Of a stretch of 64,000 nt of DNA, positions 32,424-63,600 are shown one piece after another. The notes under the pieces were generated by a model. That model was given only the letters and a program-made list of their open reading frames with translations. It was not told the origin of the DNA and did not search any database. Position 1 is the first letter of the stretch. Every line of letters starts with the position of its first letter. A program made the position numbers and the translations under genes. Source of the stretch: Bacteroidota bacterium (lineage in GTDB: Bacteria > Bacteroidota > Ignavibacteria > UBA10030 > UBA8401); contig JAQCAB010000001.1 of the NCBI GenBank assembly GCA_027622375.1, positions 115,317 to 179,316 on the forward strand, given 5' to 3'.

Positions 32424-33587
32424 TCAATCCATTATTTTGCGAAGAAAAGCTGGTCTGTCATCTTCAGTTTGTTGCTTATATTCTTTTTGATCTTCCTCAG
32501 CTGTATTAACTTGCGAGATTTCTAAACCTTGACGGATAAAAGTTGGCTCATCAAATTTTCTCAAATTAATTACTCCGGTTGGAACATCAATTACAGAAGA
32601 TTTTTTTGGAATACGAAGATGGTCTTCTTTTCTTTTTTTGAATCCGGTTGCAATTACAGTAACCATAATTTCGTCGGTCATTTTTTCATCAATTACTGCA
32701 CCAAGAATTACATTTGCATCTTCACCAACTTCTCTATGGATAATTTCAGTCGCTTCTTCAACTTCAAATAACGACATATTTTTTCCACCGGTGATATTTA
32801 CAATTACTCCTTGTGCACCTGCAATTGAAACACCTTCAAGTAATTCGCTTGAGATTGCTTTGTTGGCAGCTTCAACAGCACGATTTTCGCCACTACTAAT
32901 TCCTGTTCCCATTAATGCATCACCCATTTCGCGCATAATTGTACGAACATCAGCAAAATCTAAATTAATTAAACCTGGAACAGTTATTAATTCTGAAATT
33001 CCACGAGTTGCACCATATAAAACACTGTTGCAAATTTCAAAAGCTTCTTCAAGTGGTGTTGTTCTTTCAACAATTGAAAGTAATTTTTGGTTTGGTATAA
33101 CAATTAAAGTATCAACTTGTTTTTTCATTTCTTCCAAACCATATTCGGCTTGAGAAAATCTTTTTTTACCTTCACAATTAAAAGGTTTAGTAACAATTCC
33201 TACAACAAGTGCGCCCATACTTTTTGCAATATTTGCAATAACAGGTCCTGCACCGGTTCCCGTTCCACCTCCCATACCAGCAGTAATAAATACCATATCG
33301 CTGCCATTTAACATTCTTGCAATTTCCTCTTTATCTTCTTCAGCAGCGCGATGCCCGATTGTGGGATCTGCTCCTGCACCCAAACCGCGTGTTAAATTTT
33401 TACCGATTTGAATTTTATTATCAGCAGAGCATCTTGATAATGCTTGCGTATCTGTATTGATACAGACAAAATCAACGCCAGTCAAACCACGGGAAATCAT
33501 TCCGTTGACTGCATTGCTGCCACCTCCACCGACACCCACGACACGAATTTTAGCGCCGAGGTCCATCGATTTATCGAACTCTATCAT
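32424..33587 (-). CDS. ftsZ: Cell division GTPase FtsZ
   Basis: The tubulin signature GGGTGTGAGP and GVGGGGSNAVN are present. Confidence 0.95.
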   Translation of the reverse strand: MIEFDKSMDLGAKIRVVGVGGGGSNAVNGMISRGLTGVDFVCINTDTQALSRCSADNKIQIGKNLTRGLGAGADPTIGHRAAEEDKEEIARMLNGSDMVFITAGMGGGTGTGAGPVIANIAKSMGALVVGIVTKPFNCEGKKRFSQAEYGLEEMKKQVDTLIVIPNQKLLSIVERTTPLEEAFEICNSVLYGATRGISELITVPGLINLDFADVRTIMREMGDALMGTGISSGENRAVEAANKAISSELLEGVSIAGAQGVIVNITGGKNMSLFEVEEATEIIHREVGEDANVILGAVIDEKMTDEIMVTVIATGFKKRKEDHLRIPKKSSVIDVPTGVINLRKFDEPTFIRQGLEISQVNTAEEDQKEYKQQTEDDRPAFLRKIMD

Positions 33588-35653: not shown

Positions 35654-36574
35654 TTAATTATGAACTATTTCATATTCTTGTTTTGAAAACCCAACGAGTT
35701 TAACTTCCAACTCCAATTTTATTTTATTTTTAGAAAAAACATCACTGCGCGCAATTTTAATTAATTCAAAAACATCACTCGCTTTTGCATTTCCTTTATT
35801 GACAATAAAATTTCCATGCTTTTCAGAGATTTGTGCATTCCCAAATTGTTTTCCTTTTAAACCAACCGATTCAACTTCTTTTGCAGCAAAAGTTCCTTCA
35901 GGATTTTTAAACATACTTCCCGAGTTTGGTAAATTTAGTGGTTGTGATTCATTTCTTTTTAAAAGTAATTCGCGACGCTTTTTAATTAATTCTCCAGTTG
36001 AGCCTTTTATTAAATTAAATGTTCCACTTAAAATAATATCATTAACAAAACCAGAGCGTCTATAAATAAATCCGGAATTAGCTTTATTGATTTTTTGAAT
36101 TTTACTATTTCTAAAAATTTCCACTTCACAAATATGATCTGAAATTTCGCCACCATAAGCACCGGCATTCATCATAATTGCGCCACCAATTGTTCCGGGA
36201 ATTCCGGCTAACATTTCAACGCCCGATAAAGAATTTTGAATGCAAAAATCTACAAACATCCCAATTCTAAGTCCGGATTCTGCGATTACAAAATTATTTT
36301 CTAAACTGATTTTTGATAAACCTGATTCTAAATTAATTACAACACCGCGATAACCAGAATCGCTTATCAACATATTTGAACCTCGGCCGATTATCATAAA
36401 TGGTTCGTTGTTATCTTTTAAATATTGAACAAGATTTGTTAAATCAATTTTATCAAATGGCTCAGCATAAATATCTGCAGGTCCACCAATTTTAAATGAA
36501 GTATATTTTGCCAATGGCTCATTTAAAGAGATAAATCCGCGAAATATTTTTTTCAGTTCTTGAAGATTTATCAT
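35654..36574 (-). CDS. murB: UDP-N-acetylenolpyruvoylglucosamine reductase
   Basis: The FAD-binding motif YTSFKIGGPADIYAEP is present. I place the start at the internal ATG (MINLQ...). It forms an ATGA overlap with the murC stop. The longer ORF-track start at 36616 would overlap murC by 46 bp. Confidence 0.85.
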   Translation of the reverse strand: MINLQELKKIFRGFISLNEPLAKYTSFKIGGPADIYAEPFDKIDLTNLVQYLKDNNEPFMIIGRGSNMLISDSGYRGVVINLESGLSKISLENNFVIAESGLRIGMFVDFCIQNSLSGVEMLAGIPGTIGGAIMMNAGAYGGEISDHICEVEIFRNSKIQKINKANSGFIYRRSGFVNDIILSGTFNLIKGSTGELIKKRRELLLKRNESQPLNLPNSGSMFKNPEGTFAAKEVESVGLKGKQFGNAQISEKHGNFIVNKGNAKASDVFELIKIARSDVFSKNKIKLELEVKLVGFSKQEYEIVHN

Positions 36575-37953
36575 TTTTGAATTGCCTCTTTCAAAAAATT
36601 TTCTCCAAACTTCCAAATATCACCTGCGCCCATTGTTATTACAATGTCTCCATCTTTAATAATAGTTTTTAAAAATGTTGGAATATTATTTTTATCATGT
36701 ACGTAATGAGTATTTTTATGGCCGAATTTTTTTGCAGCTATAATAATTAATTCACCAGTTACACCTTGAATTGGAGTTTCTCTTGCCGGATAAACATCAG
36801 TTACAATTAAAACGTCGGCAAGCAAAAATGCCTTTCCAAATTCTTCATAAAAATCTCGAGTGCGGGTAAATAAGTGTGGTTGAAAAACGCAAACAACTCT
36901 TTTTTTCCATCCCTCTTTGGCACCTAAAAGTGTTGCTTTGCATTCAGTTGGATGATGAGCATAATCGTCATACAAAGTAATTCCAAGAGCTTCACCTTTT
37001 TTCTCCCAGCGGCGATAAACACCTGAGAATTTTTCAATTCCTTTTTTTACACTTTCAAATGTAATATTTAATTGTAATCCGACTGAAATAGCAGCAAGAG
37101 AATTTTGAATATTATGTTTTCCCGGGATTTGCAAATTTATTCTTCCCAATTCAATTCCATTTTGTAAAACTGTAAAACTTGTTTGATGTTCATTTTGATT
37201 TATATCAATTGCTTGAATATCAGCTTGTGGAGAAAATCCATAAGTATAAATTTTCTTTTTTGAAATTTGTGGGATAATATCTTGCAAGGCCGGTTCATCT
37301 AAACACAAAAGAACAAATCCATAAAAAGGAACTTTGTTCGCAAATTGTATAAAAGCATTTTTTATATCTTCCAAATCGCGATAAGTATCGAGATGATCAA
37401 CTTCGAGCGTTGTAAGTACTGCAATTGTGGAAGTTAGAGATAGAAAAGATCGATCGAATTCATCAGCTTCAACAACAATAAAATCACCTTTACCAAGTCG
37501 CGCGTTTGTTCCACCAAGTCCACTTAATTTTCCACCAACTATAACAGTTGGATCCAAATTTCCTTCAATTAAAACCAAACTGATCATTGAAGTTGTTGTA
37601 GTTTTACCATGCGTGCCAGCAATTCCAATTCCATATTTTAGTCGCATTACTTCGGCAAGCATTTCAGCACGACGAACAATTGGGATTTTCCTTTTTTTTG
37701 CTTCCATTATTTCAGGATTATCTGGTACGATCGCAGAAGAATAAACCACCGTGTCAACATCATTCATAATGTTTTTTGAATTATGTCCTTCAAAAACTTC
37801 AGCACCAAGCAAAGTCAATCTTTCAGTCACTTCAGTTAACGAACGATCGGAACCTGAAACTTTAAAATTTAAATTGAGTAATATTTCAGCAATGCCACTC
37901 ATTCCGATGCCGCCGATGCCGATAAAATGTATTTTTTTAATTGAACTAAACAT
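36571..37953 (-). CDS. murC: UDP-N-acetylmuramate--L-alanine ligase
   Basis: IHFIGIGGIGMSGIAEIL and the Mur ligase P-loop GTHGKTTTTSM are present. Confidence 0.95.
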   Translation of the reverse strand: MFSSIKKIHFIGIGGIGMSGIAEILLNLNFKVSGSDRSLTEVTERLTLLGAEVFEGHNSKNIMNDVDTVVYSSAIVPDNPEIMEAKKRKIPIVRRAEMLAEVMRLKYGIGIAGTHGKTTTTSMISLVLIEGNLDPTVIVGGKLSGLGGTNARLGKGDFIVVEADEFDRSFLSLTSTIAVLTTLEVDHLDTYRDLEDIKNAFIQFANKVPFYGFVLLCLDEPALQDIIPQISKKKIYTYGFSPQADIQAIDINQNEHQTSFTVLQNGIELGRINLQIPGKHNIQNSLAAISVGLQLNITFESVKKGIEKFSGVYRRWEKKGEALGITLYDDYAHHPTECKATLLGAKEGWKKRVVCVFQPHLFTRTRDFYEEFGKAFLLADVLIVTDVYPARETPIQGVTGELIIIAAKKFGHKNTHYVHDKNNIPTFLKTIIKDGDIVITMGAGDIWKFGENFLKEAIQK

Positions 37954-38464
37954 TTATACTTTTCCTGCGAGTAAGTTCTTTTGTGTAGGTAAGAATTGTT
38001 TTACGCTTTTTAATTGGAATTGTTTTTGCAAGATGTTGAAATTGCTCGAGTAAATTTTTTTGTCTTTCATATCTGCCAACACGAATTCTATAAGCTCGTT
38101 TTCTATTTTTTACTTTTAATAAAACCATTTGATGTAATCCGGCAGTTTTAACTCCGCGCTCTCTTCCAATATAAATCCATTCTATATTTTGAATTAAAAT
38201 TTCACTTTCGTTTGAACGTCTCCAAAAAATAATTTTATTATCAGTTAAAATTATTTTCCTTTCTCGCCATCTATTTAATATTAGAACCACAAAAGCAACA
38301 AACACAAAAAATGAAATCATATAAATAACCGGATCTTGCATTGTTAGTTGCCAATCTTTATCAATAAAAGTTCCTTTGATTCCGATATATATCACAAGCG
38401 TAACCATATAAATCAATGCTTGTTGATAATAAAAATCGAGCTTGTAAATATATTCTCTACTCAT
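37946..38464 (-). CDS. Small membrane protein: two TM helices plus a bacterial PH-like (bPH_2/YdbS-like) domain
   Basis: 172 aa with two hydrophobic helices (ALIYMVTLVIYIGI; VIYMISFFVFVAFVVLIL). These are followed by a basic ~90-aa domain (IILTDNKIIFWRR...HQMVLLKVKNRKRAYRIRV). The ATG overlaps the murG stop by 8 bp and its stop overlaps the murC start by 8 bp. Confidence 0.4.
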   Translation of the reverse strand: MSREYIYKLDFYYQQALIYMVTLVIYIGIKGTFIDKDWQLTMQDPVIYMISFFVFVAFVVLILNRWRERKIILTDNKIIFWRRSNESEILIQNIEWIYIGRERGVKTAGLHQMVLLKVKNRKRAYRIRVGRYERQKNLLEQFQHLAKTIPIKKRKTILTYTKELTRRKSINV

Positions 38465-39566
38465 TTACTTGCTCCGAGATTCTTTGCAAAATTTGTTTTG
38501 CAATAATCGATGATACGTTTGGCTTCCCCAGTTTTTTACACTCAGTTGAAATTGATTTTAATTTATTTTCAGAATCAAGAAGTTCAGTAATTGTATTAAA
38601 TAATTTCTCATCTAAATTTTTTTCTTCAATCATAACTGCGGCGTTTTTATCAACCAATGTTTTTGCATTGTAAAATTGATGATTGCCGGCAGCAAATGGA
38701 TATGGAATTAAAATTGCTGGTTTGCCAAGTAATGTTAATTCTGAAATTGTTGTTGCGCCCGCTCTGCAAACAACAATATCCGATGCGGCGTAAGCGTATT
38801 CCATTTCATCAATAAATTGAAAGATTTTTACATTTATTAATTTTATTGTTGATTGATAAAATGCAGCATCCTTTGCACCGGTTTGCCAAATTATTTGATA
38901 ATTTTTTTTCTGCAATAAATCTAAAATTGAATAAATAGAATTGTTAATTTTGTTTGCTCCAAGACTTCCGCCAAAAACTAAAATTGTTTTTAAGTCTGGG
39001 TTTAATCCAAAATATTTGTTACCTGCTGTTTTAGAAATAGTACCAAATTTTTTCCTAGTTGGATTTCCAACAACTTCATAATTCACTTTTTTGCTTAAAT
39101 ATTTTTTTGTTTCCTCAAAAGCCAAATAAACTTTTTCAGCTCTTTTGGATTGAATTCTTGTAGTAATACCCGGAAAGCTGTTACTTTCATGAATAATTGT
39201 CGGAATTTTTAACCACGATGCAACTCTTAAAACAGGACCACAAACATATCCACCAGTTCCAATAATTATGCTTGGTGATAATTTTTTTAGAAGATTGTAA
39301 ACTTGCAAAAGCGAAACAGATATTTTTATCGGAAGTAACAAATTTTTTAATGTAAATCTACGATGCAATCCACTAATCCAAATTGGATAAAATGGAAATC
39401 CAGATTGCGGAACTATACGAGCCTCTATTTTATTTTTTGTACCGATAAAAGAAATCATACAGCTTGAATCCAATTCTTTGAGAGACTCTGCAATTGAAAG
39501 TGCGGGGAACAAATGTCCACCCGTTCCACCACCTGTAAATAAAATATGTTTGACTTTATTTTGCAC
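38457..39566 (-). CDS. murG: UDP-GlcNAc:undecaprenyl-PP-MurNAc-pentapeptide GlcNAc transferase
   Basis: The N-terminal FTGGGTGGHLFPALSIAE and a GT28 C-terminal domain are present. Confidence 0.9.
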   Translation of the reverse strand: MQNKVKHILFTGGGTGGHLFPALSIAESLKELDSSCMISFIGTKNKIEARIVPQSGFPFYPIWISGLHRRFTLKNLLLPIKISVSLLQVYNLLKKLSPSIIIGTGGYVCGPVLRVASWLKIPTIIHESNSFPGITTRIQSKRAEKVYLAFEETKKYLSKKVNYEVVGNPTRKKFGTISKTAGNKYFGLNPDLKTILVFGGSLGANKINNSIYSILDLLQKKNYQIIWQTGAKDAAFYQSTIKLINVKIFQFIDEMEYAYAASDIVVCRAGATTISELTLLGKPAILIPYPFAAGNHQFYNAKTLVDKNAAVMIEEKNLDEKLFNTITELLDSENKLKSISTECKKLGKPNVSSIIAKQILQRISEQVNE

Positions 39567-48190: not shown

Positions 48191-48607
48191 TTATTTTTTT
48201 AATTCCTTAAGTTTATTTCGATCGATTGAAAACCAATTTGGCGATGAATTTGGATTTGACATTTGCAATAGATTTGAAGCAACAACCGAAATTTTTTCGA
48301 TGCTAGATTTTCGGTTTATTTCCGCCTGTAAAAGCTGATTAATATTTCGATTTTTTTTATGAGTTGTCTTTAACTCGCCAACTTCTTTTGCCAAACTTTC
48401 AACCTTAATAACATTACCTATATAAAGTAATGCAGTGACTGCAAAAACAAACATCCAACTCACAATATTAAATGTAGAATGTTTGCGTTTATAAACCGGT
48501 CGATTTTTTGATTCGGAATTTTCATCACTAATTTTTTCAACTTTCGAATTATGTTCGCTATAAACATATCGTCGATCATCCAAAATATTTTGATTACTAT
48601 TTGCCAT
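48191..48607 (-). CDS. ftsL: FtsL-like cell division protein
   Basis: It has a single TM helix (IVSWMFVFAVTALLYI) followed by a coiled-coil segment. Its position is between rsmH and ftsI. Confidence 0.5.
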   Translation of the reverse strand: MANSNQNILDDRRYVYSEHNSKVEKISDENSESKNRPVYKRKHSTFNIVSWMFVFAVTALLYIGNVIKVESLAKEVGELKTTHKKNRNINQLLQAEINRKSSIEKISVVASNLLQMSNPNSSPNWFSIDRNKLKELKK

Positions 48608-49599
48608 TAATTTTTTTCTGCAATTCTTAGTTTTGCACTACGCGAACGTTTGTTATTTTTTACTTCTTCTTCCGATGGAATAATTGGTTTTTTAGTTAAT
48701 AAATTAAAAATTGGTTCAATTATTTTATTTGGAATTAATTTATGAGATGATCTTTCATAATTTTTAGAGTTGTTCACAAAAAATTGTTTTACAATTCTAT
48801 CTTCCAATGAGTGATAGGAAATTATTGCAATTCTTGATTTTGGAAGTAAAATATTTTTTGAGAATTCAAGTAAGTTAATTAACTCATCTAATTCTTTATT
48901 TACTTCAATTCTAATTGCTTGAAAAATTCTGGAAATACATTTGATTAAATGTTTGCCTTTGTAACATTTTTCAATAACACTAATTAAATCATTTACTTTT
49001 TCAATTTTAGAAATACTTCTTGTTTCAAATATTTTTCTTGCAATTCTTTTTGAAAATGGTTCTTCGCCATATTTAAAAAATATCTCAACAAGTTTTTCTT
49101 GGCTGTAATTATTAACTATATCTTTAGCGTTTATTGGTTGAGATTTATCCATTCTCATATCTAATTCTGATTGATGTAAATATGAAAATCCCCTTTCACT
49201 TGACTCAATTTGAAAAGACGAAACACCCAAATCTGCAACAACTCCATTTACTTTCGAAATATTATTTTCATTTAAAACATTAACAATATTTTGAAATTTA
49301 CTTTTCACAATAATTAATTGCCCTTTATTAATCCAATAAACAAATTCTGTTTTAACAAATTTAATTGCATCTTCATCTCGATCGATTGCAATAACTTTTC
49401 CATTTTGTGAAAGTTGTTTAAGTATCTCGTTTGTATGACCACCACCACCGAGAGTGCAATCAACATAAATTCCGTTTTTATCTGTGATGAGATTTGAAAT
49501 AGTTTCTCTAAGCAAAACTGGTTTATGATAAATTGTAGTTTTATTTTCCACATTAAGAAAATCAATAGAATTATTTTTTAAAAACTTGCGCAGCAACAT
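48607..49599 (-). CDS. rsmH: 16S rRNA (cytosine1402-N4)-methyltransferase
   Basis: The motifs YHKPVLL and IYVDCTLGGGGH are present. I chose the internal Met start, which overlaps mraZ by 29 bp. The longest ORF would overlap by 92 bp. Confidence 0.85.
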   Translation of the reverse strand: MLLRKFLKNNSIDFLNVENKTTIYHKPVLLRETISNLITDKNGIYVDCTLGGGGHTNEILKQLSQNGKVIAIDRDEDAIKFVKTEFVYWINKGQLIIVKSKFQNIVNVLNENNISKVNGVVADLGVSSFQIESSERGFSYLHQSELDMRMDKSQPINAKDIVNNYSQEKLVEIFFKYGEEPFSKRIARKIFETRSISKIEKVNDLISVIEKCYKGKHLIKCISRIFQAIRIEVNKELDELINLLEFSKNILLPKSRIAIISYHSLEDRIVKQFFVNNSKNYERSSHKLIPNKIIEPIFNLLTKKPIIPSEEEVKNNKRSRSAKLRIAEKN

Positions 49600-50014
49600 C
49601 TTCGTAACTTTGTTGCTGTTTTTGTTTATATGTATCGAATAACTTGGGATTCCAAACTTCAATTCTATCTAACACCCCAATTATTTTTACATCTGTTGTA
49701 ATATGTGCGAACTGTAGCAACTCTTTTGGAATTACAATTCTAGATTGTTTATCAAGAGTAGATTCTGTTGCCCATTCAAGTAAAGTCCGGGCAATAAATC
49801 TATGTTGCGGATCTGCTGAAATTAAATTTCGGATTGATTCTTCAACTTTTATCCATTCATCATGTGGGTACAAAAATAAACATTCTTCGTAACCACGTGT
49901 GATTATAAACATTTCGTTTGCATTTGGCGAAATGTTTTTCTTCATGCGCGCAGGGATATTAATTCTCCCTTTTGCGTCTACAGCATATGTATACGATCCA
50001 ATAAACGATGACAT
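49571..50014 (-). CDS. mraZ: Transcriptional regulator MraZ
   Basis: It is 147 aa with a duplicated SpoVT/AbrB-like domain (DAKGRINIPARMKK ... DKQSRIVIPKEL). It is the first gene of the dcw cluster. Confidence 0.85.
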   Translation of the reverse strand: MSSFIGSYTYAVDAKGRINIPARMKKNISPNANEMFIITRGYEECLFLYPHDEWIKVEESIRNLISADPQHRFIARTLLEWATESTLDKQSRIVIPKELLQFAHITTDVKIIGVLDRIEVWNPKLFDTYKQKQQQSYEDVAAQVFKK

Positions 50015-50290: not shown

Positions 50291-51622
50291 ATGCATGATA
50301 TAGTAGAAAATCCAACACTTTCTAAAGCGTTGTACGTAGAAACTTATGGCTGCCAAATGAATATTGCAGACAGCGAAATTATTTCCGGTTTATTGAATCA
50401 AAAAGGATATAAACTTTCTGAAAAACCTGATAATGCTGATGTGATTATTTTAAACACTTGCAGTGTTCGTGATAATGCTGAAAAAAAAATTCATGATCGT
50501 TTAAATCATTTAAAATTTTATAAAAAGAAAAATCCTGCAGTTGTAATCGGGATTGTTGGTTGCATGGCCGAAAGATTACGAAGTGAATTAATTGAAAAAA
50601 ATAATATTGTTGATTTAGTTGTCGGTCCAGATGAATATAGAAAATTACCTGAATTAATTAATGATGCAGAAAATGGAACTACTGGAATTGCAGTTCGTTT
50701 ATCAAGAGTTGAAACTTATGATGACATTACTCCACTTAGAACAAATGGAATTAATGCATGGATTTCGATTATGCGTGGTTGCGATAAATTTTGCACATTC
50801 TGTGTTGTTCCTTTCACTCGTGGACGAGAAAGAAGTAGATCATTTAAAAGTATTGTTGAAGAAGTTCATCAACTTAGCGCAACTGGATTTAAAGAAATTA
50901 CTTTAATTGGTCAAAATGTAAATTCATATTTAGATGGTGAAAATGATTTTGCAGATTTAATGTGTGAGGTAAGTTTAGTTGATCAAAATCTTAGAATTCG
51001 TTTTACAACTTCTCATCCGCAAGATATGTCGGATAAATTAATTGAAACAATTGCGACACATAAAAATATTTGCAACAATATTCATTTACCTGTTCAATCA
51101 GGCTCAAATAGAATTCTGAAATTAATGAATCGAAGTTATTCAATCGAACATTATCAAAATTTAATTGAAAAAATAAAAAAGCAAATTCCTGAAGTTGGTC
51201 TTTCAACTGATCTTATTGTTGGATTCCCGACTGAAACTGATGAAGATCATAAATTAACACTCGATTTTTTAAATAATGTTAAATATGATGGCGCATATAT
51301 GTTTAAATACTCTCCACGCGAAAATACAAAAGCTTGGGAAATGGGAGATTCTGTTCCAGAAGAAATAAAACAAGCAAGATTAAGTGAAATAATCGATCTT
51401 CAAAATAATATCGCTACTGAAATTAATAAAACTCTAATTGGAAAAACTTTTAACGTTTTAACTGAAAAGGAAAGCTCAAAATCATCTTCTGATTGGACAG
51501 GTAGAACAGACACAAATAAAATTGTAGTCTTTAAAAAAGGAAATATTAATCGTGGTGATTATATAAATGTTGTAATTGAAAAGTCAAATTCTGCAACACT
51601 TTTTGGGAAGATTGTAGAATGA
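50291..51622 (+). CDS. miaB: tRNA-i6A37 methylthiotransferase (radical SAM)
   Basis: The MTTase N-terminus YVETYGCQMN and the radical-SAM segment CDKFCTFCVVP are present, with a TRAM C-terminus. The start is taken at ATG 50291 rather than the TTG-extended ORF. Confidence 0.9.
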   Translation: MHDIVENPTLSKALYVETYGCQMNIADSEIISGLLNQKGYKLSEKPDNADVIILNTCSVRDNAEKKIHDRLNHLKFYKKKNPAVVIGIVGCMAERLRSELIEKNNIVDLVVGPDEYRKLPELINDAENGTTGIAVRLSRVETYDDITPLRTNGINAWISIMRGCDKFCTFCVVPFTRGRERSRSFKSIVEEVHQLSATGFKEITLIGQNVNSYLDGENDFADLMCEVSLVDQNLRIRFTTSHPQDMSDKLIETIATHKNICNNIHLPVQSGSNRILKLMNRSYSIEHYQNLIEKIKKQIPEVGLSTDLIVGFPTETDEDHKLTLDFLNNVKYDGAYMFKYSPRENTKAWEMGDSVPEEIKQARLSEIIDLQNNIATEINKTLIGKTFNVLTEKESSKSSSDWTGRTDTNKIVVFKKGNINRGDYINVVIEKSNSATLFGKIVE

Positions 51623-52317
51623 TAAAATTTATTTTTGCTGTTTTCTTTTTAATTCAATCACAATCTCCAAACGATATTATTAAAGAAAAAATTTTATCTG
51701 TTTATAATGGCAACGCCGAAAATATTTTAAAAGAACTTCCAACTCTTGAAACTAAATATCCAAATAATGCGAGTGTAATTTATTTAAAAGCAATATTAAC
51801 AGTTGATGGCGCAAAAGCTGTAAAAATGTACGAGCAAATAGTAAATCAATTTCGCGAAAGCGAATGGGCTGATGACGCGCTTTATAGAATTTATGAATAC
51901 AATTATGCAATTGGACTTTATAAAAGAAGTGATGAAATATTTTCGAAATTAAAAGAACAATTTCCAAATTCTGAATATTTACAAATTCCACAAAAAAAAG
52001 TTGGGCTTGAAAAACAAACATTGGTTTTTGAAGAAAAGGAAGAAAATAATTTACCTTCAGAGATTTCAAAAGAAACTGAAAATAAAATATCTCCATTTGC
52101 AGTTCAAGTTGGCGCTTTTGTAAATGAAGAAAATGCAAAAGTGAAAGCAAACTTTTTTAAATCACTTGGGAAAAAAACATCAATTCAAAAAAAAGAGACT
52201 ACAACAATTTTATTTGTTGTAGTTGTTGAGGGATTTGAAACCGAAAAATCAGCTCGCGAATTTATTATAGAACTAAAACAAAAACATCAAATTGATGCAT
52301 TTTTTGTAAAAAGATAA
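51619..52317 (+). CDS. SPOR-domain protein with TPR-like N-terminal region (secreted)
   Basis: It has a signal peptide. The C-terminal ~75 aa (SPFAVQVGAFVNEENAKVKANFF...ILFVVVVEGFETEKSAREFI) show the SPOR fold pattern. Confidence 0.6.
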   Translation: MIKFIFAVFFLIQSQSPNDIIKEKILSVYNGNAENILKELPTLETKYPNNASVIYLKAILTVDGAKAVKMYEQIVNQFRESEWADDALYRIYEYNYAIGLYKRSDEIFSKLKEQFPNSEYLQIPQKKVGLEKQTLVFEEKEENNLPSEISKETENKISPFAVQVGAFVNEENAKVKANFFKSLGKKTSIQKKETTTILFVVVVEGFETEKSAREFIIELKQKHQIDAFFVKR

Positions 52318-57631: not shown

Positions 57632-60600
57632 TTATTTTAAGAACAACATTTTTTTAGTTTGCACAAATCGTTTTGATTTATCAATTGCTTCGGCTTCAAT
57701 TCTGTAAAAATACATTCCGCTAGATTGGTTTGCATTCCAACTAATTGTATGATTCCCCGCTGGAAGTACATCATTAACAAGTTCTGTAATTTTTTCGCCA
57801 AGTAAATTATAAATTTCGATTTTAACTTTACTTTCAATTGGGAGTGAGTATTTAATATTTGTTTTTGGATTAAATGGATTTGGATAATTTTGTTCCAAAC
57901 TAAAATTCTTTGGCAATACAGGTTTTGCTGAATAATTTACAGATAGGTTTCCATTTTGATTAATATTTTTTGAAACAGAATAGATTTCGAAAGCGCCATT
58001 TAAATTACCTTCAAAATTATTATTTAGAATTGAGATATAAATATTTCCAAGCTCGGTTGAAGCTTCTGGCGATAAATCTTTATTTCCAAGATTTGCAAAT
58101 GCAGTTGTTGTAAGTCCATATTTAGAGTGTGAATTAAACATTGCAACAATTGATTCACCAAAATATTTTTTAAGATTTGTATTCAGCACAAACGAATCAA
58201 CTTTTACAGCATTTGTATTAAAGTTTAAAGTCAAACTCATCGCATCAAAACTTTTTACTCCACTTGCGAAAATAGGGATTGCAATTGTTCTTCCATCATT
58301 TAAAGATTTTGTTTCACCAGCAAAAATACTTTTTTCTGAAATATTGGCATTATTTTCTTTTGCAATAGTTGAGTTTACGGTTCCCCCTTTTCCATTTATA
58401 AATGCCCAGTTCCAAATTCTAACAAATAATGTTAAATCTTCAAGATCAATTAAGCCATCATTATCAATCGAAATAACCGGGAAAGTTCCCCGATATGGAG
58501 AAATATCGCCAACATTTTTATTTCCAGTTTTCCAAGCGTTACTAAAAATTGCAAGATCTTCCGTTAAAATTCTTCCATCATTTGTATAGTCAGTTAAAAT
58601 ACCAGTTGTAAATTGTTTTGCCTTTGCAACTTTTGTGCTGTCAAGATTTCCGAGAGAATCTCTATACCATAATGTGAAATAATGTTTTGTCATTGCTTTC
58701 AATTTTGGAATCCACATCGAGTCAATATCACTTGTTGGTTTAGTAATTGGGAAAACTCTTGTTGGTGTATTACTATTATATATTGATGTTTCAGTTACAT
58801 ATAATTGATATGATGTTGGAGAACTCATATCTGTTGATTTTGTCCAACTTACTGTAACACTGCCTGCAATATTTTGAGTGTTATTTACAACTGATTTTAT
58901 ACTATCAATCATTGGAGGAGTATTATCAACTGTAAATTTATTTGTTGTAAGTGGTTGACTATTTACTGCTAAACCATATGCAGTCAAACGGAATTTGGTT
59001 GTTTGCGATTCAATAAACTCACCATCACTTTTTGTGCGCCACAAAACTGAATCATTAAAATTTGAATTTGAAACTTTTGTAGCTCTTCCACCAAGTTGTG
59101 CTACTGAGAACCATGAGACACCATCATTTTTACTAAACTCTCCGACAAATGTAATTGTATCATCATTTGCAGCGTTAACCAAAAATGGAATGTAAACAGA
59201 ATCTTTTACAATTTTTTGAGGTGTTGTTACTGAAAGTAGTCTAACCGGTTTCGACGGAGTTGCTCTTTTAAGAATTTCATTTTTATCAAAATTATCTGCT
59301 CTATCTCGAGCTCGCAAAGCAAGAAAATATTTTTTATAATTTTGGAATCCAGTTATTGTTTTTGTGTGCGTAGTTGGAGAATCATCAATTATACTATCTC
59401 TTGGTGAGTTGTAATCTATTAAAGTAGAATCCGTTTGAACATAATAAATATAATATCTGAGTGGCGAATTTTTATCTGTTCCTTTAAGCCATGTAATTGT
59501 AATTGCATTACCTGTAGTTTCAGCAAATGCCGAAGTAATTCCACTAAATGCTGGTGGGTTGTTGTCTAAAGAAAATACACTTGATGCAGTTGGATTACCC
59601 GTTCCACCAATACCTATTAATGTAACTCTTAATTTTACTGAATCATTTTCAATAAACGAAAAATCTTTTTTAGAAAGCCACCCCATTAAAGTTGGAATAC
59701 TTGATATAGCAAATTTTTCTTTTGTAACTAAAATATTTGTTGTTGCAAACCAAGTTGAACCATTATTAAGTGAGTATTCCAAAACTAATGATGCAGTATC
59801 ACCCAAATCTCCATTCGGATAATATAAAATTCTTAAACTGTCTGATGCAAAATTAAATTGGTTTTTAGCTACAACAACAGAATCAACTTGTGGTTTTCTA
59901 GGAACAACTCTAAACTCCCATGCAGTTGACCACAAACTTGTGTCTGTCAAATTTCGCGCACGCATCTTCCAGTAATAAGTTAAATTTGTGGTCAAAGAAT
60001 CGTAATAATGTATTTTTAAACTTGAATCAATATCTGCAACATCACGCACACCTGTTGTAAATCCAGAAGTTTGAGAAATTTGTAAATCATATCTTGTTGC
60101 AACTTTTGCAGTATCTTTCCATTGTAAAGTATCACGAACTTTTACCCAAAGTTTTTTATCAGTCGGGCTTAGATGAATTGGTGCACCAATTAAAGTTCTA
60201 AAATTCCAAACAAAAGACCAAAAACTTATATTATTTCTATTATCACGCGATCTAACTCGCCAGAAATATTTTTTATAATTTTTAAAATTTGTAATTGCTT
60301 TTACTGTATCGCCACCTGTAATATCACCACTAAAAAAAGGAGTTAAAGTAGTATCAATTGTAGTTGCTGTGTGTGGCTGCTCATAAATTTCCATTCTGTA
60401 ATCAATTGCACCTAAAACTTTTCTCCATTTTAAAGTATTCGAAATTGCAATTCTTACTGATGAACTTTCGGGATAAACAAGAACTGGTTGTTCATTTACA
60501 TCTTCAATTAAAACTGTAACTGCTCTTTCAAAAAATTTTGCAGGTGTGCCAGAATCTGTGGTTCGTATTCTGATTGTATATTGATTTTTGGCTTCGTAAT

Positions 60601-63600
60601 TATAACTTTCTTTTGCTTTAAGTTTGTCATTTAAAATTTGGAAAGAAGCATTATCATCGGAACCTAATCCTGTTACAAGTGTGTATGTAAAAGATTGATT
60701 TGCATCTTCATCTGTTGTTGATAAAGTTCCGATTACTATATCATCTGGTTCATTTTCTGCAATTGATGAATCACTTATTGTTATCCAAGTTGGTGTGTCA
60801 TTTACATTATCAATTGTAATCGGGATTGCTCTATCAAAAGTTTTTCCCGGTGTGCCGTTATCTGTTGTGCGAATTCGAACAGTGTAACTACTTTTTACTT
60901 CAAAATTAAAAACTTCGTTTGTTTTAAGTTGATCACCTGCAATCGTAAATTTTGCATTATCATCAGCACCTGTCCCTGCAACAAAAGTGTAAGTATGTGT
61001 TTGCCCAACATCTGCATCGGTTGTTGATAATATTCCAACTTTCGTTCCAACAACTTCATTTTCTGCAACTGTTGAGTCATCTATCGCAATCCAAGTTGGA
61101 GCATCATTATCATTTTCAATTACAACTGTTATTGCTCTTTCAAAAAATTTTGCTGGTGTTCCAGAATCTGTTGTACGAACACGAATTGTATAATTTGATT
61201 TTACTTCGTAATCAAAAACAGCATTCGATTTTAACTGATCACCAGTTATTGTGAATGAAGAATTATTATCCGAGCCTGTGCCTGTTACAAAAGTATATGT
61301 GTAACTTTGACCAGCATCTTCATCTGTTGAACTCAATGTTCCGATTGTTGTGTTTGTCGGTAAATTTTCAAGTATTGTAGAATCATTAATTGCAATATTT
61401 GTTGGTGTGTCATTTGCATCCTTAATTGTAATTGGGATAATTCTTTGGAATGATAAAGCTCCCTGGTCTAAAGTTTGTACCCGAATTGTATAACTTGATT
61501 TTACTTCGTAATTGTAAATTGCATTTGATTTAAGCTTATCTCCAACAATTTGGAAAGATGCGTTATCGTTTGACCCAGCACCGGAAACTAATGAATAAGT
61601 AAAATTAACATCTCCATCAGGATCAGTTGAGCTGAGAGTTCCAATATCAGTTCCTGTTGCTAAATTTTCAAAAATTGTTGAGTCGCTGATTGCAACATAA
61701 GTGGGCGCATCATTTACAGAATTAATTGTAACATTAAAAGTTTTTTCAACTACATCGTCTCCACTATTTGCTGTTCCACCATCATCAGTAACTCTTACTG
61801 TAAGAACTATGGGGCTAATTCCTGAAGTATTTTTATTTGCAACTGGAGAAAATGTTAAAGTGCCAGTTGCATTCGGACTTGTGTACGAAGTGATAGTTGG
61901 AGTTGGTATTATTGTGGTTGTATTTGATGTAGCTGAAACAATTAAAAATTGCCCAACTTCATCTGAACCGCCACCAACACCAATGCCAGCTAAATTTACA
62001 GTTTGTGTTACAGCATCTTCATCAATTGTTATATCAACTGGTTTTGTTAAAGTTGGCTCATCATTTACTGCAGTAACAGTAATTGTAAAAGTTATTGGCG
62101 CATCAGAAGTTGAATTGTCACCACCATTTGCAGTCCCACCATTATCATCTAAATATGCAGTTATGGTTGCAGAGCCATTTTTATTTAAATCTGGTCTAAA
62201 AGTTAAATCGCCAGTTGCCGAAATTGCAGGTTGCTCAACAAACAATGCTGTATTGGTATTTGTGGAAATTACAAAATTTAGTGTTTGTAAATTTTCATTT
62301 GTTATACTTGAACTCGTTGGTCCCTTCTTTATATTTGTTGCCCAACTCGAAATTGTTTGAGTTGTAACATCTTCAAGAACTGTTTGGTTTGCACCTTTTG
62401 TAAAACTTGGTGAATCGTTTACTGGAGTTATTGTTACTTGAAATGTTTTTGAAATTGAACTATTTGTTGAACCACCATCACTAACTGTTACTGTAATTGT
62501 AATTGTCCCATTTTGATCTGCTTGCGGAGTTAAAGTTAAACTTCCTGTATTATTTGCACTTGTGTATATTACTGTTGGGTTTGGAATAACTGCTGCATCA
62601 CTTGACGTTGCAGTAACGGATAAAGTTTGTGTTTCGTTTGCTGCACCAGATCCAATTCCACTTAAATTTACAGTTATATTTCCACCTGCATCTTCCAAAA
62701 CCGCAGTCGGGTTTGAAATATCTGCAAGTGTCGGCTGATCATTTACAGAAGTTACAGTTACATTTATTGTAATAACTTTTGTGTCATCTCCACTATTTGC
62801 TGTTCCACCATTATCAGTGAGTGTAACAGTTAAAACAACTGGTGTGCCAGAAGTAAATTGATCTGCAGCCGGAGTAAAATTAATTGTTCCTGTCGGATTT
62901 GCACTTGCATAAGAAATTGTTGGTGTTGGAATTATATTTGTGTTGCTCGAAGTTATTGATAGAGCCAGGGTTTGACTATTTTCATCTGTTCCTCCTCCTG
63001 CACCAATTCCAGATAAAGAGATGGTTTGTGCCGATGCATCTTCATCAACAGAAATATCAGATACGGAATTTATTATTGGTTCATCATTTACGCCAGTAAC
63101 TGTTATTGTAAAACTTTTTGGATCGTCACTTGTATTATCTACACCACTATTTGCAGTTCCACCATCATCTTGTAAGTAAACCGTTACTGTTGCAACACCA
63201 ACTTTGTTTGTTGCAGTAGTATAAGTTAAAGTCCCACTTGCATCAATTACAGGTCCTGCAGAAAAAAGTGCAGTGTTAGTATTATTTTGAATTACAAAAG
63301 ATAGAATTTGAGATGCTTCATTAGTTCCTTTATTTAAATTTGTTGCCCAACTTACACTTTGCCCACCAGCATCTTCTAAGATAGTTTGGGCACCGCCAGC
63401 AGTATAACTTGGTATATCATTAACATTTGTAACTGTAACTGTAAATGTTTTTGTGATTGCATCATCGCCACTATTTGCAGTTCCACCATTATCTGTAACT
63501 GTAACAGAAATTGTAACAGTACCATATTGATTTGCATTTGGTGTATAAGCAAGTGAGCCAGTTGTTGCCGCGCTATTATATGTTACTGTTGGATCAGGTA

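Follow-up and report, generated by a model that had tools for sequence, protein, structure and literature searches.

Gene X in the dcw cluster

Few gene clusters of bacteria are as well studied and as conserved as the division and cell wall (dcw) cluster. We analyzed a stretch of 64,000 nucleotides (the window) from a Bacteroidota bacterium of the Ignavibacteria (GenBank assembly GCA_027622375.1, contig JAQCAB010000001.1), in which an uncharacterized gene, here termed X, is located between murG and murC of such a cluster. All evidence presented is computational, and the organisms concerned are mostly uncultured. A first-pass annotation of the window had reported a 172-aa open reading frame (ORF) at this place that overlaps each neighbor by 8 nt; the ORF list, the raw sequence and the NCBIfam assignments of the flanking genes confirm this. 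The genes that delimit the locus are the following (window positions):

37946..38464, minus strand: gene X, 172-aa ORF with ATG start (stop codon 37946..37948), small inner-membrane protein with a predicted cytoplasmic pleckstrin homology (PH)-like domain
38457..39566, minus strand: murG, 369-aa ORF directly upstream of X (NCBIfam TIGR01133, 2.4e-97, above cut-off)
36571..37953, minus strand: murC, 460-aa ORF directly downstream of X (NCBIfam TIGR01082, 1e-159, above cut-off)
49571..50014, minus strand: mraZ, first gene of the dcw cluster
48191..48607, minus strand: FtsL/DivIC-like gene, separate from X
32424..33587, minus strand: ftsZ, last gene of the dcw cluster

The stop of murG and the start of X have 8 nt in common (ATGAGTAG at 38464..38457), as have the stop of X and the ATG of murC (ATGTTTAG at 37953..37946). 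According to the ORFs and to NCBIfam and Pfam identities, the dcw cluster of the window is complete, collinear and tightly packed on the minus strand, with the order mraZ-rsmH-ftsL-like-ftsI-murE-murF-mraY-murD-ftsW-murG-X-murC-murB-ftsQ-ftsA-ftsZ. A scan of the region for promoter- and terminator-like sites found them no more often than in shuffled sequence, thus giving no sign of an internal transcription unit. X behaves as a gene of the cluster: it is collinear with its neighbors, lies on the same strand, shows no promoter or terminator signals of its own and has a conserved position (see below).

X is a real gene and defines a compact family

A search of 5.8 billion proteins returned 72 homologues of X with 44-72% identity, all of them about 160-200 aa long and none with a Pfam domain or an informative name. 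Database names within the family are all "hypothetical" or obviously spurious; the exact X sequence is filed as "hypothetical protein" of a metagenome-assembled "Bacteroidetes bacterium". An alignment of 71 sequences contains 22 invariant residues, among them the motifs Y-x-x-D-F-Y-Y-Q at the N-terminus and R-x-R-x-G-R-Y near the C-terminus. The ratio of nonsynonymous to synonymous substitutions (dN/dS, Nei-Gojobori) between orthologous coding sequences is 0.02-0.18. X is therefore under purifying selection and a real gene, and together the homologues, the invariant residues and the low dN/dS show that it is no chance ORF.

With a HMMER profile, 182 clusters were recovered from 1.84 billion cluster representatives at E<=1e-3, 147 of them at E<=1e-10. 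The full-length matches listed are 150-177 aa long and align to the profile from end to end; the family is compact, with a single architecture, and is no widespread domain. A repeat of the profile-based homologue search yielded no further named or characterized members. We discarded as spurious the names that JGI gives to some divergent members ("AbrB/MazE fold antitoxin", "PRC-barrel YlmC"), since the fold is PH-like. Searches of PHROGs and PADLOC gave no matches to X, so that it is not a phage or defence family, and NCBIfam contained nothing meaningful for X.

The position of X is conserved in close relatives

To survey close relatives, one genome per GTDB species was scanned with patterns specific for the close subfamily; 240 genomes matched, and 80 loci were kept. 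All 80 come from metagenome-assembled genomes labelled Bacteroidota, Ignavibacteriae or Ignavibacteriales, a few of them with obviously loose labels, and two bear the label Ignavibacterium (L047, L053). Where flanking genes can be seen, they stand in the order murG-X-murC; this holds for 80 of the 80 species-representative loci and for five separately fetched metagenome loci. murG is on the contig in 78 of the 80, the start of murC in 79. From the stop of murG to the start of X the median distance is 7 nt, and in 54 of 78 loci the two genes overlap or are at most 30 nt apart. For the stop of X and the start of murC the median is 28 nt, with an overlap or at most 30 nt in 41 of 79. The window, with its 8-nt overlaps, exemplifies an arrangement that is generally tight and not always overlapping.

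In many relatives X is set apart from both neighbors by short non-coding spacers, which rules out a frameshift or fusion artefact. X as a frameshifted end of murG or murC was likewise rejected, because MurG and MurC match full-length models without it. The first-pass annotation had taken X for an integral member of the operon and not an insertion or remnant, had proposed a survey of related dcw clusters for an orthologue at the same place, and had named a frameshift fusion to murG or murC as the finding that would overturn its reading: the order held throughout the survey, the orthologue was present at the murG|murC position in all 80 loci as far as the flanking genes are visible, and no such fusion was seen.

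Some of these loci carry additional genes. The gap between murG and X exceeds 500 nt in 13 of the 78 species-representative genomes, and in the ten loci examined (L008, L009, L011, L014, L023, L024, L037, L064, L070, L074; two copies in L011 and L037) one or two genes lie in this gap. Their products, of about 200 aa, all carry a signal or lipoprotein peptide as well as repeats that, judged by eye, resemble the MORN/YwqK type. The murG|murC junction thus accepts extra genes in this clade, while X is constant. Between X and murC, some relatives contain a membrane protein of about 120 aa resembling half of a TauE/SafE-type permease (GIGGAI...AQGTTLAML), and others a four-helix-bundle protein of a kind often found as a selfish insertion, both judged by eye (L032, L048, L063, L069, L080, L084; L038, L066, L068, L077).

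In divergent lineages X stays with murG

Divergent members of the family, with 20-30% identity to X, were traced to their own contigs. Two of them (L090, L093) have X at the murG|murC position in full dcw clusters. In at least five further distinct loci (L086, L088, L091, L092, L094; L089 is a duplicate of L088, GC 0.63, and L095 of L094) neither ftsW upstream nor murC downstream of murG is visible, and X directly follows murG. In L088, L091, L092 and L094 murG is flanked by unrelated genes, and in L091 and L092 X overlaps murG by 8-11 nt; L086 is a short contig on which only murG upstream and the start of a signal-peptide ORF downstream of X can be seen. Since X is kept with murG outside the dcw cluster and with no murC nearby, it tracks murG and not murC. 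The earlier claim that X belongs to the murG|murC position consequently stands for the close relatives, whereas across the family the link is to murG and persists where murG has left the cluster. Of the observations made here, none argues more strongly for a functional link than this adjacency of X and murG, and the partner that it indicates is MurG.

In the loci with detached murG, the gene that comes after X is likewise conserved. Its product, termed Y, measures about 160-196 aa and carries a signal peptide as well as, at the C-terminus, a membrane anchor that ends in ...LLFSVRSN. Y has no Pfam match and does not occur in the window. The copies are homologous to each other (E 1e-8 to 1e-25 among L088, L091 and L092, weaker for L094) and lie outside the window at these contig positions:

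L088:5489-6046
L091:6499-7089
L092:6494-7048
L094:1312-1800
L086:1505-1681 (start of the gene)

This arrangement suggests a murG-X-Y module in lineages whose murG lies outside the dcw cluster. Directly upstream of one detached murG-X pair a TPR-SPOR protein is encoded (L088:2956-3783, minus strand).

X combines a membrane hairpin with a PH-like domain

Hydropathy analysis identified two hydrophobic segments in X, at approximately residues 15-33 and 45-63. Residues 68-172 contain 27 lysines and arginines and nine aspartates and glutamates, a net charge of +18. An AlphaFold2 model based on the 71-sequence alignment has a predicted local distance difference test (pLDDT) score of 84.5 and a predicted template modelling score (pTM) of 0.70; its elements are, in order, a strand (3-7), two helices (10-33 and 45-67), six strands, a helix (135-148) and a tail of low confidence. 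A second model was calculated for the divergent member P0210, which is 18% identical to X, with a 106-sequence alignment. It reached pLDDT 93.5 and pTM 0.80, and the order of elements was unchanged. The parts of X are as follows (window positions, all on the minus strand):

38444..38458: residues 3-7, N-terminal beta-strand before the hairpin (DSSP on two independent models)
38366..38437: residues 10-33, membrane helix 1 with a tyrosine stripe, Y12/Y19/Y26 (AlphaFold2 model and hydropathy)
38333..38365: residues 34-44, short acidic loop (net charge -2 by charge count), predicted to be periplasmic, ending in D44-P45
38264..38332: residues 45-67, membrane helix 2 (19-residue hydropathy window up to 2.8; AlphaFold2 model)
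38021..38263: residues 68-148, six beta-strands and a C-terminal amphipathic helix, the PH-like body
37949..38020: residues 149-172, variable K/R-rich tail (net charge +7; pLDDT 48-67)

By the positive-inside rule (-2 in the loop, +18 in the C-terminal part) both termini and the PH-like domain are predicted to be cytoplasmic. Such a charge distribution would put the domain on the side of the membrane on which MurG acts, the cytoplasmic one. In the models X shows what defines the PH-like fold class: about seven strands form a beta-sandwich, and a C-terminal amphipathic helix closes one end of it. The strand ahead of the hairpin and the six behind it add up to the canonical seven, which suggests that the hairpin is inserted between PH strands 1 and 2. 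The PH domain of X thus appears to be split by a membrane hairpin, the pairing of the strands being deduced from the order of elements.

Several conserved residues point to defined surfaces. The strand 3-7 opens a conserved F/Y-x-Y-K-L-D-F-Y-Y-Q motif in which Y7, D10, F11, Y12, Y13 and Q14 are invariant in the 71-sequence alignment. The PH-like body is basic and contains conserved R83, R121 and R128 and the motif RIRVGRYER; the C-terminal tail varies in length and sequence in the same alignment. Among 106 family members, the positions conserved beyond the hydrophobic core are D10, Y12, Y19, Y26, G31, D44-P45, R83, R121 and R128 (Y12 in 84%, Y19 in 95%, Y26 in 83%, D44 in 85% and P45 in 94%). 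The tyrosines are spaced by seven residues and consequently lie on one face of helix 1. Together, the three arginines and the tyrosine stripe indicate specific binding surfaces, and a conserved helix face with arginines next to the membrane would suit a membrane partner together with a phosphate-bearing ligand or an acidic protein surface.

X stands within or next to the membrane-anchored bacterial PH proteins

The first-pass annotation had described X as two hydrophobic helices followed by a basic domain, had likened it to the bPH_2/YdbS fold and had suggested structure prediction as a check. Hydropathy, charge counts and the AlphaFold2 model agree on the helices and the basic domain, and the predicted fold is PH-like. 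The comparison with bPH_2 held in part: the fold and the layout (two membrane helices, then an intracellular PH-like domain) are consistent with it, but one strand precedes the helices, the PH domain is apparently split in a manner resembling EROS (see below), and no match to PF03703 reaches the cut-off. X matches no Pfam or NCBIfam model at threshold, and the sole Pfam match of the window protein is to the eukaryote-type PH model (PF00169, E=0.076). Neither X nor any of the 71 close members matches bPH_2 at E<=1; the best score, 17.9 bits (E 0.0039) in the divergent member P0138, stays under the gathering score of 22, so that by this measure X does not belong to bPH_2.

Matches to other PH families are recurrent and weak. 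The best for bPH_4 (PF06713, DUF1200) has 20.9 bits against a gathering score of 22.9 (E 4e-4, again P0138), and the best for bPH_10 16.7 bits against 27 (E 0.005, divergent member P0125). In divergent members bPH_5 and bPH_6 score about 12-14 bits; among the 71 close members bPH_6, bPH_5 and bPH_3 match below threshold in three, one and one, respectively. P0181 carries the precomputed label "PH_40 (weak)". EbsA-like (PF17255) matches 43 of the 71 below threshold (best E 5e-4, about 14-18 bits against 25.9) over helix 2 and the first strands, and DUF6585 matches 18 of the 71 close members below threshold. X remains under the gathering scores of bPH_4, bPH_10, bPH_5, bPH_6 and PH_40, and its family under that of EbsA-like; papers on the cyanobacterial "EbsA" contained no information on the Pfam model of that name. 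The repeated weak matches are consistent with distant kinship to the bacterial PH clan, and no single family is established by them.

Foldseek gave matches to the bacterial PH crystal structures 3dcx and 3hsa. A profile search against all PDB sequences gave chance matches only (butyrophilin, E ~1). Proteins with two helices and an intracellular PHb domain were first recognized as a class by Xu et al., who speculated on oligomeric pores or caps (PMC2817789). Like X, the membrane-anchored bPH families are small and have two N-terminal membrane helices, an intracellular PH-like domain of about 80 residues and a C-terminal helix cap. X differs from them in its own invariant motifs, YKLDFYYQQ and RIRVGRYER, and in its position after murG, which is not reported for these families. 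The few members that have been studied, YdbS/YdbT and DdE/DdF, have been connected with antimicrobial-peptide resistance or export, and none is linked to murG. The most fitting description of X is that of a family of its own, new and unannotated, which belongs to the membrane-anchored bacterial PH proteins or stands beside them.

X is also not a protein of the FtsL, FtsB/DivIC, FtsN or ZipA type, which have a single membrane pass with a periplasmic coiled coil or domain, or a large cytoplasmic FtsZ-binding domain. Unlike these, X has two helices that are joined by only about 11 periplasmic residues, and its N- and C-terminus both lie inside; the FtsL model matches, below threshold, only one of the 71 members.

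The layout of X resembles that of EROS

EROS/CYBC1 (PDB 8kei chain D) is a eukaryotic endoplasmic reticulum chaperone of NOX2. Its two membrane helices "separate the PH domain", and the six strands that follow helix 2 precede the C-terminal helix. The membrane helices bind NOX2 at TM2 and TM6, and the PH domain at its cytoplasmic dehydrogenase domain (PMC11161758). According to the models, X appears to have the same layout, a PH domain interrupted by a two-helix hairpin that is followed by six strands and a helix. We regard this likeness as an analogy of architecture and not as a sign of common descent; it offers a concrete model for how a polytopic membrane protein and a cytoplasmic enzyme could be coupled. 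Other eukaryotic domains with the PH-like superfold (myotubularin PH-GRAM, Lam6 GRAM, Rtt106/Pob3/SSRP1 PH, Vps36 GLUE) are 2-19% identical to X, occur in unrelated contexts with unrelated functions, and none is anchored by an inserted membrane hairpin.

Possible function of X

MurG is an antibiotic-target enzyme whose organization at the membrane is still debated. The first-pass annotation had suggested a role of X in the divisome or in lipid II synthesis, which is still a hypothesis. We tentatively propose, as the reading we prefer though would not yet call probable, that X serves MurG and the step from lipid I to lipid II as a membrane adaptor or assembly factor facing the cytoplasm. X would be a small protein of the inner membrane whose ends both lie in the cytoplasm and whose two-helix hairpin is inserted in a basic PH-like domain on the cytoplasmic face. 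It would be made from the murG transcript, and in this genome its translation would be coupled to that of MurG. The hairpin with the tyrosine stripe of helix 1 may contact a polytopic membrane partner, for which MraY and FtsW are the obvious candidates, or the undecaprenyl lipid. The arginine-rich PH-like domain may dock the peripheral enzyme MurG, or bind adjacent pyrophosphate or anionic lipid head groups. The two parts would then be used much as EROS uses its own to hold NOX2. We infer the contact of X with MurG, MraY or FtsW, the binding of lipid and the direction of an effect on lipid II.

The proposed physical coupling around MurG has a parallel. Natural fusions of MurG and MurC have been reported, cytoplasmic complexes of Mur enzymes have been proposed, and the fusions argue for these enzymes acting in a complex; like the X locus, they suggest that MurG is physically coupled to MurC-type enzymes whose genes adjoin its own (PMC4929429). 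X differs from them in being a third, membrane-embedded protein that is not fused and follows murG even with no murC nearby.

Several points weigh against a role of X at MurG. Gene adjacency alone does not prove a functional link, and the interaction between X and MurG is a supposed one. The MurG of this genome has ordinary length and domain set, with nothing obvious missing that X could replace; the idea that X makes up for a lost membrane-binding patch of MurG was dropped, because this region of MurG is still basic and hydrophobic (judged by eye). To our knowledge, most bacteria run MurG with no X-like protein, so that X is not mechanistically required for the reaction itself. Furthermore, the characterized two-helix PH proteins named above are tied to antimicrobial peptides and not to cell-wall synthesis.

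The EROS likeness can be carried further. X would then correspond to EROS in prokaryotes, both in its architecture and in how it acts. As a dedicated subunit it would assemble or stabilize the lipid II membrane complex, with its hairpin holding MraY and/or FtsW and its PH domain MurG; it would be needed for normal cell-wall synthesis in Ignavibacteria-type Bacteroidota, and Y would be a third partner in the murG-X-Y lineages. We consider this extended proposal rather improbable. If it is true, a defined role in the synthesis of peptidoglycan precursors would for the first time be assigned to a bacterial PH-domain protein.

Alternatively, X could be a general accessory of the divisome or of septal synthesis, which we regard as unlikely. 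Its PH-like domain would bind FtsA or the C-terminal peptide of FtsZ, or its hairpin would regulate FtsW, and the adjacency to murG would reflect the history of the dcw cluster. Most relatives, like the window, do have X in a full cluster with ftsW, ftsQ, ftsA and ftsZ, and lineage-specific small membrane proteins occur in the dcw clusters of other phyla. In addition, binding of short peptides by strand addition is common among folds of the PH/PTB type (PMC2817789). However, four divergent loci (L088, L091, L092, L094) have no division gene near X while murG is still adjacent, and a periplasmic loop of only about 11 residues means that X cannot act in the periplasm like FtsL, FtsB, FtsQ or FtsN.

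Slightly less credible still is that X is a bacterial PH protein of the YdbS/YdbT or DdE/DdF type, forming oligomeric rings or pores for envelope stress or for the transport of small molecules or peptides, for example of intermediates linked to undecaprenyl phosphate, and merely co-expressed with cell-wall genes. The shared architecture of two helices and an intracellular bacterial PH domain and the recurrent sub-threshold matches to bPH_4, bPH_2, bPH_10, bPH_5, bPH_6 and EbsA favor this explanation, but no family threshold is reached, none of about 95 loci shows a bacteriocin, ABC-transporter or stress-regulon context, and the strict adjacency to murG is left unexplained. That X is a functionless lineage-specific spacer ORF, an annotation artefact or a frameshifted end of murG or murC, as the lack of an annotated function anywhere might suggest, is refuted by its dN/dS and 22 invariant residues, by a confident, conserved predicted fold even at 18% identity, by the non-coding spacers beside X in many genomes and by MurG and MurC being full-length without it.

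In the library searched, our literature search found no description of a gene at the murG|murC position in Ignavibacteria and none of a PH-domain partner of MurG; the only gene reported "between murG and murC" comes from Frankia and encodes an unrelated nitroreductase. Both the protein class and the fold were known before; new are the X family, the split-PH, EROS-like layout in bacteria and the persistent linkage to murG. Being conserved and attached to murG over deep divergence, X is a candidate for a missing organizer of the lipid II step in a major and poorly studied branch of the Bacteroidota, and the architecture shared with EROS offers a specific working model. If the proposed role at MurG is correct, it would assign a function to one branch of the bacterial PH proteins with membrane anchors, a group that is for the most part functionally uncharacterized. 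Even if X does not interact with the cell-wall machinery, the definition of the family by motifs, fold and synteny is useful for genome annotation.

Further observations

In the window, the longest ORF of murB (35654-36616, minus strand, TTG start) and the end of murC share 46 nt. Since the Pfam match of MurB begins only at residue 48, the true start of murB is probably located further downstream. In roughly half of the related genomes (among L006-L085, e.g., L007-L011) murB was not found after murC within the fetched flank, while the window has murC-murB-ftsQ; the position of murB thus varies within the clade. Scans of the window for Rfam families and tRNAs gave no matches. Just past mraZ, adjoining the dcw cluster, a protein with a SPOR domain, a peptidoglycan-binding septal domain, is encoded (window 51619-52317, plus strand). 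A 1688-aa protein (window 57632-62698, minus strand) combines cadherin-like repeats with a C-terminal sorting domain for type IX secretion (Por_Secre_tail), which is consistent with a Bacteroidota-type organism.

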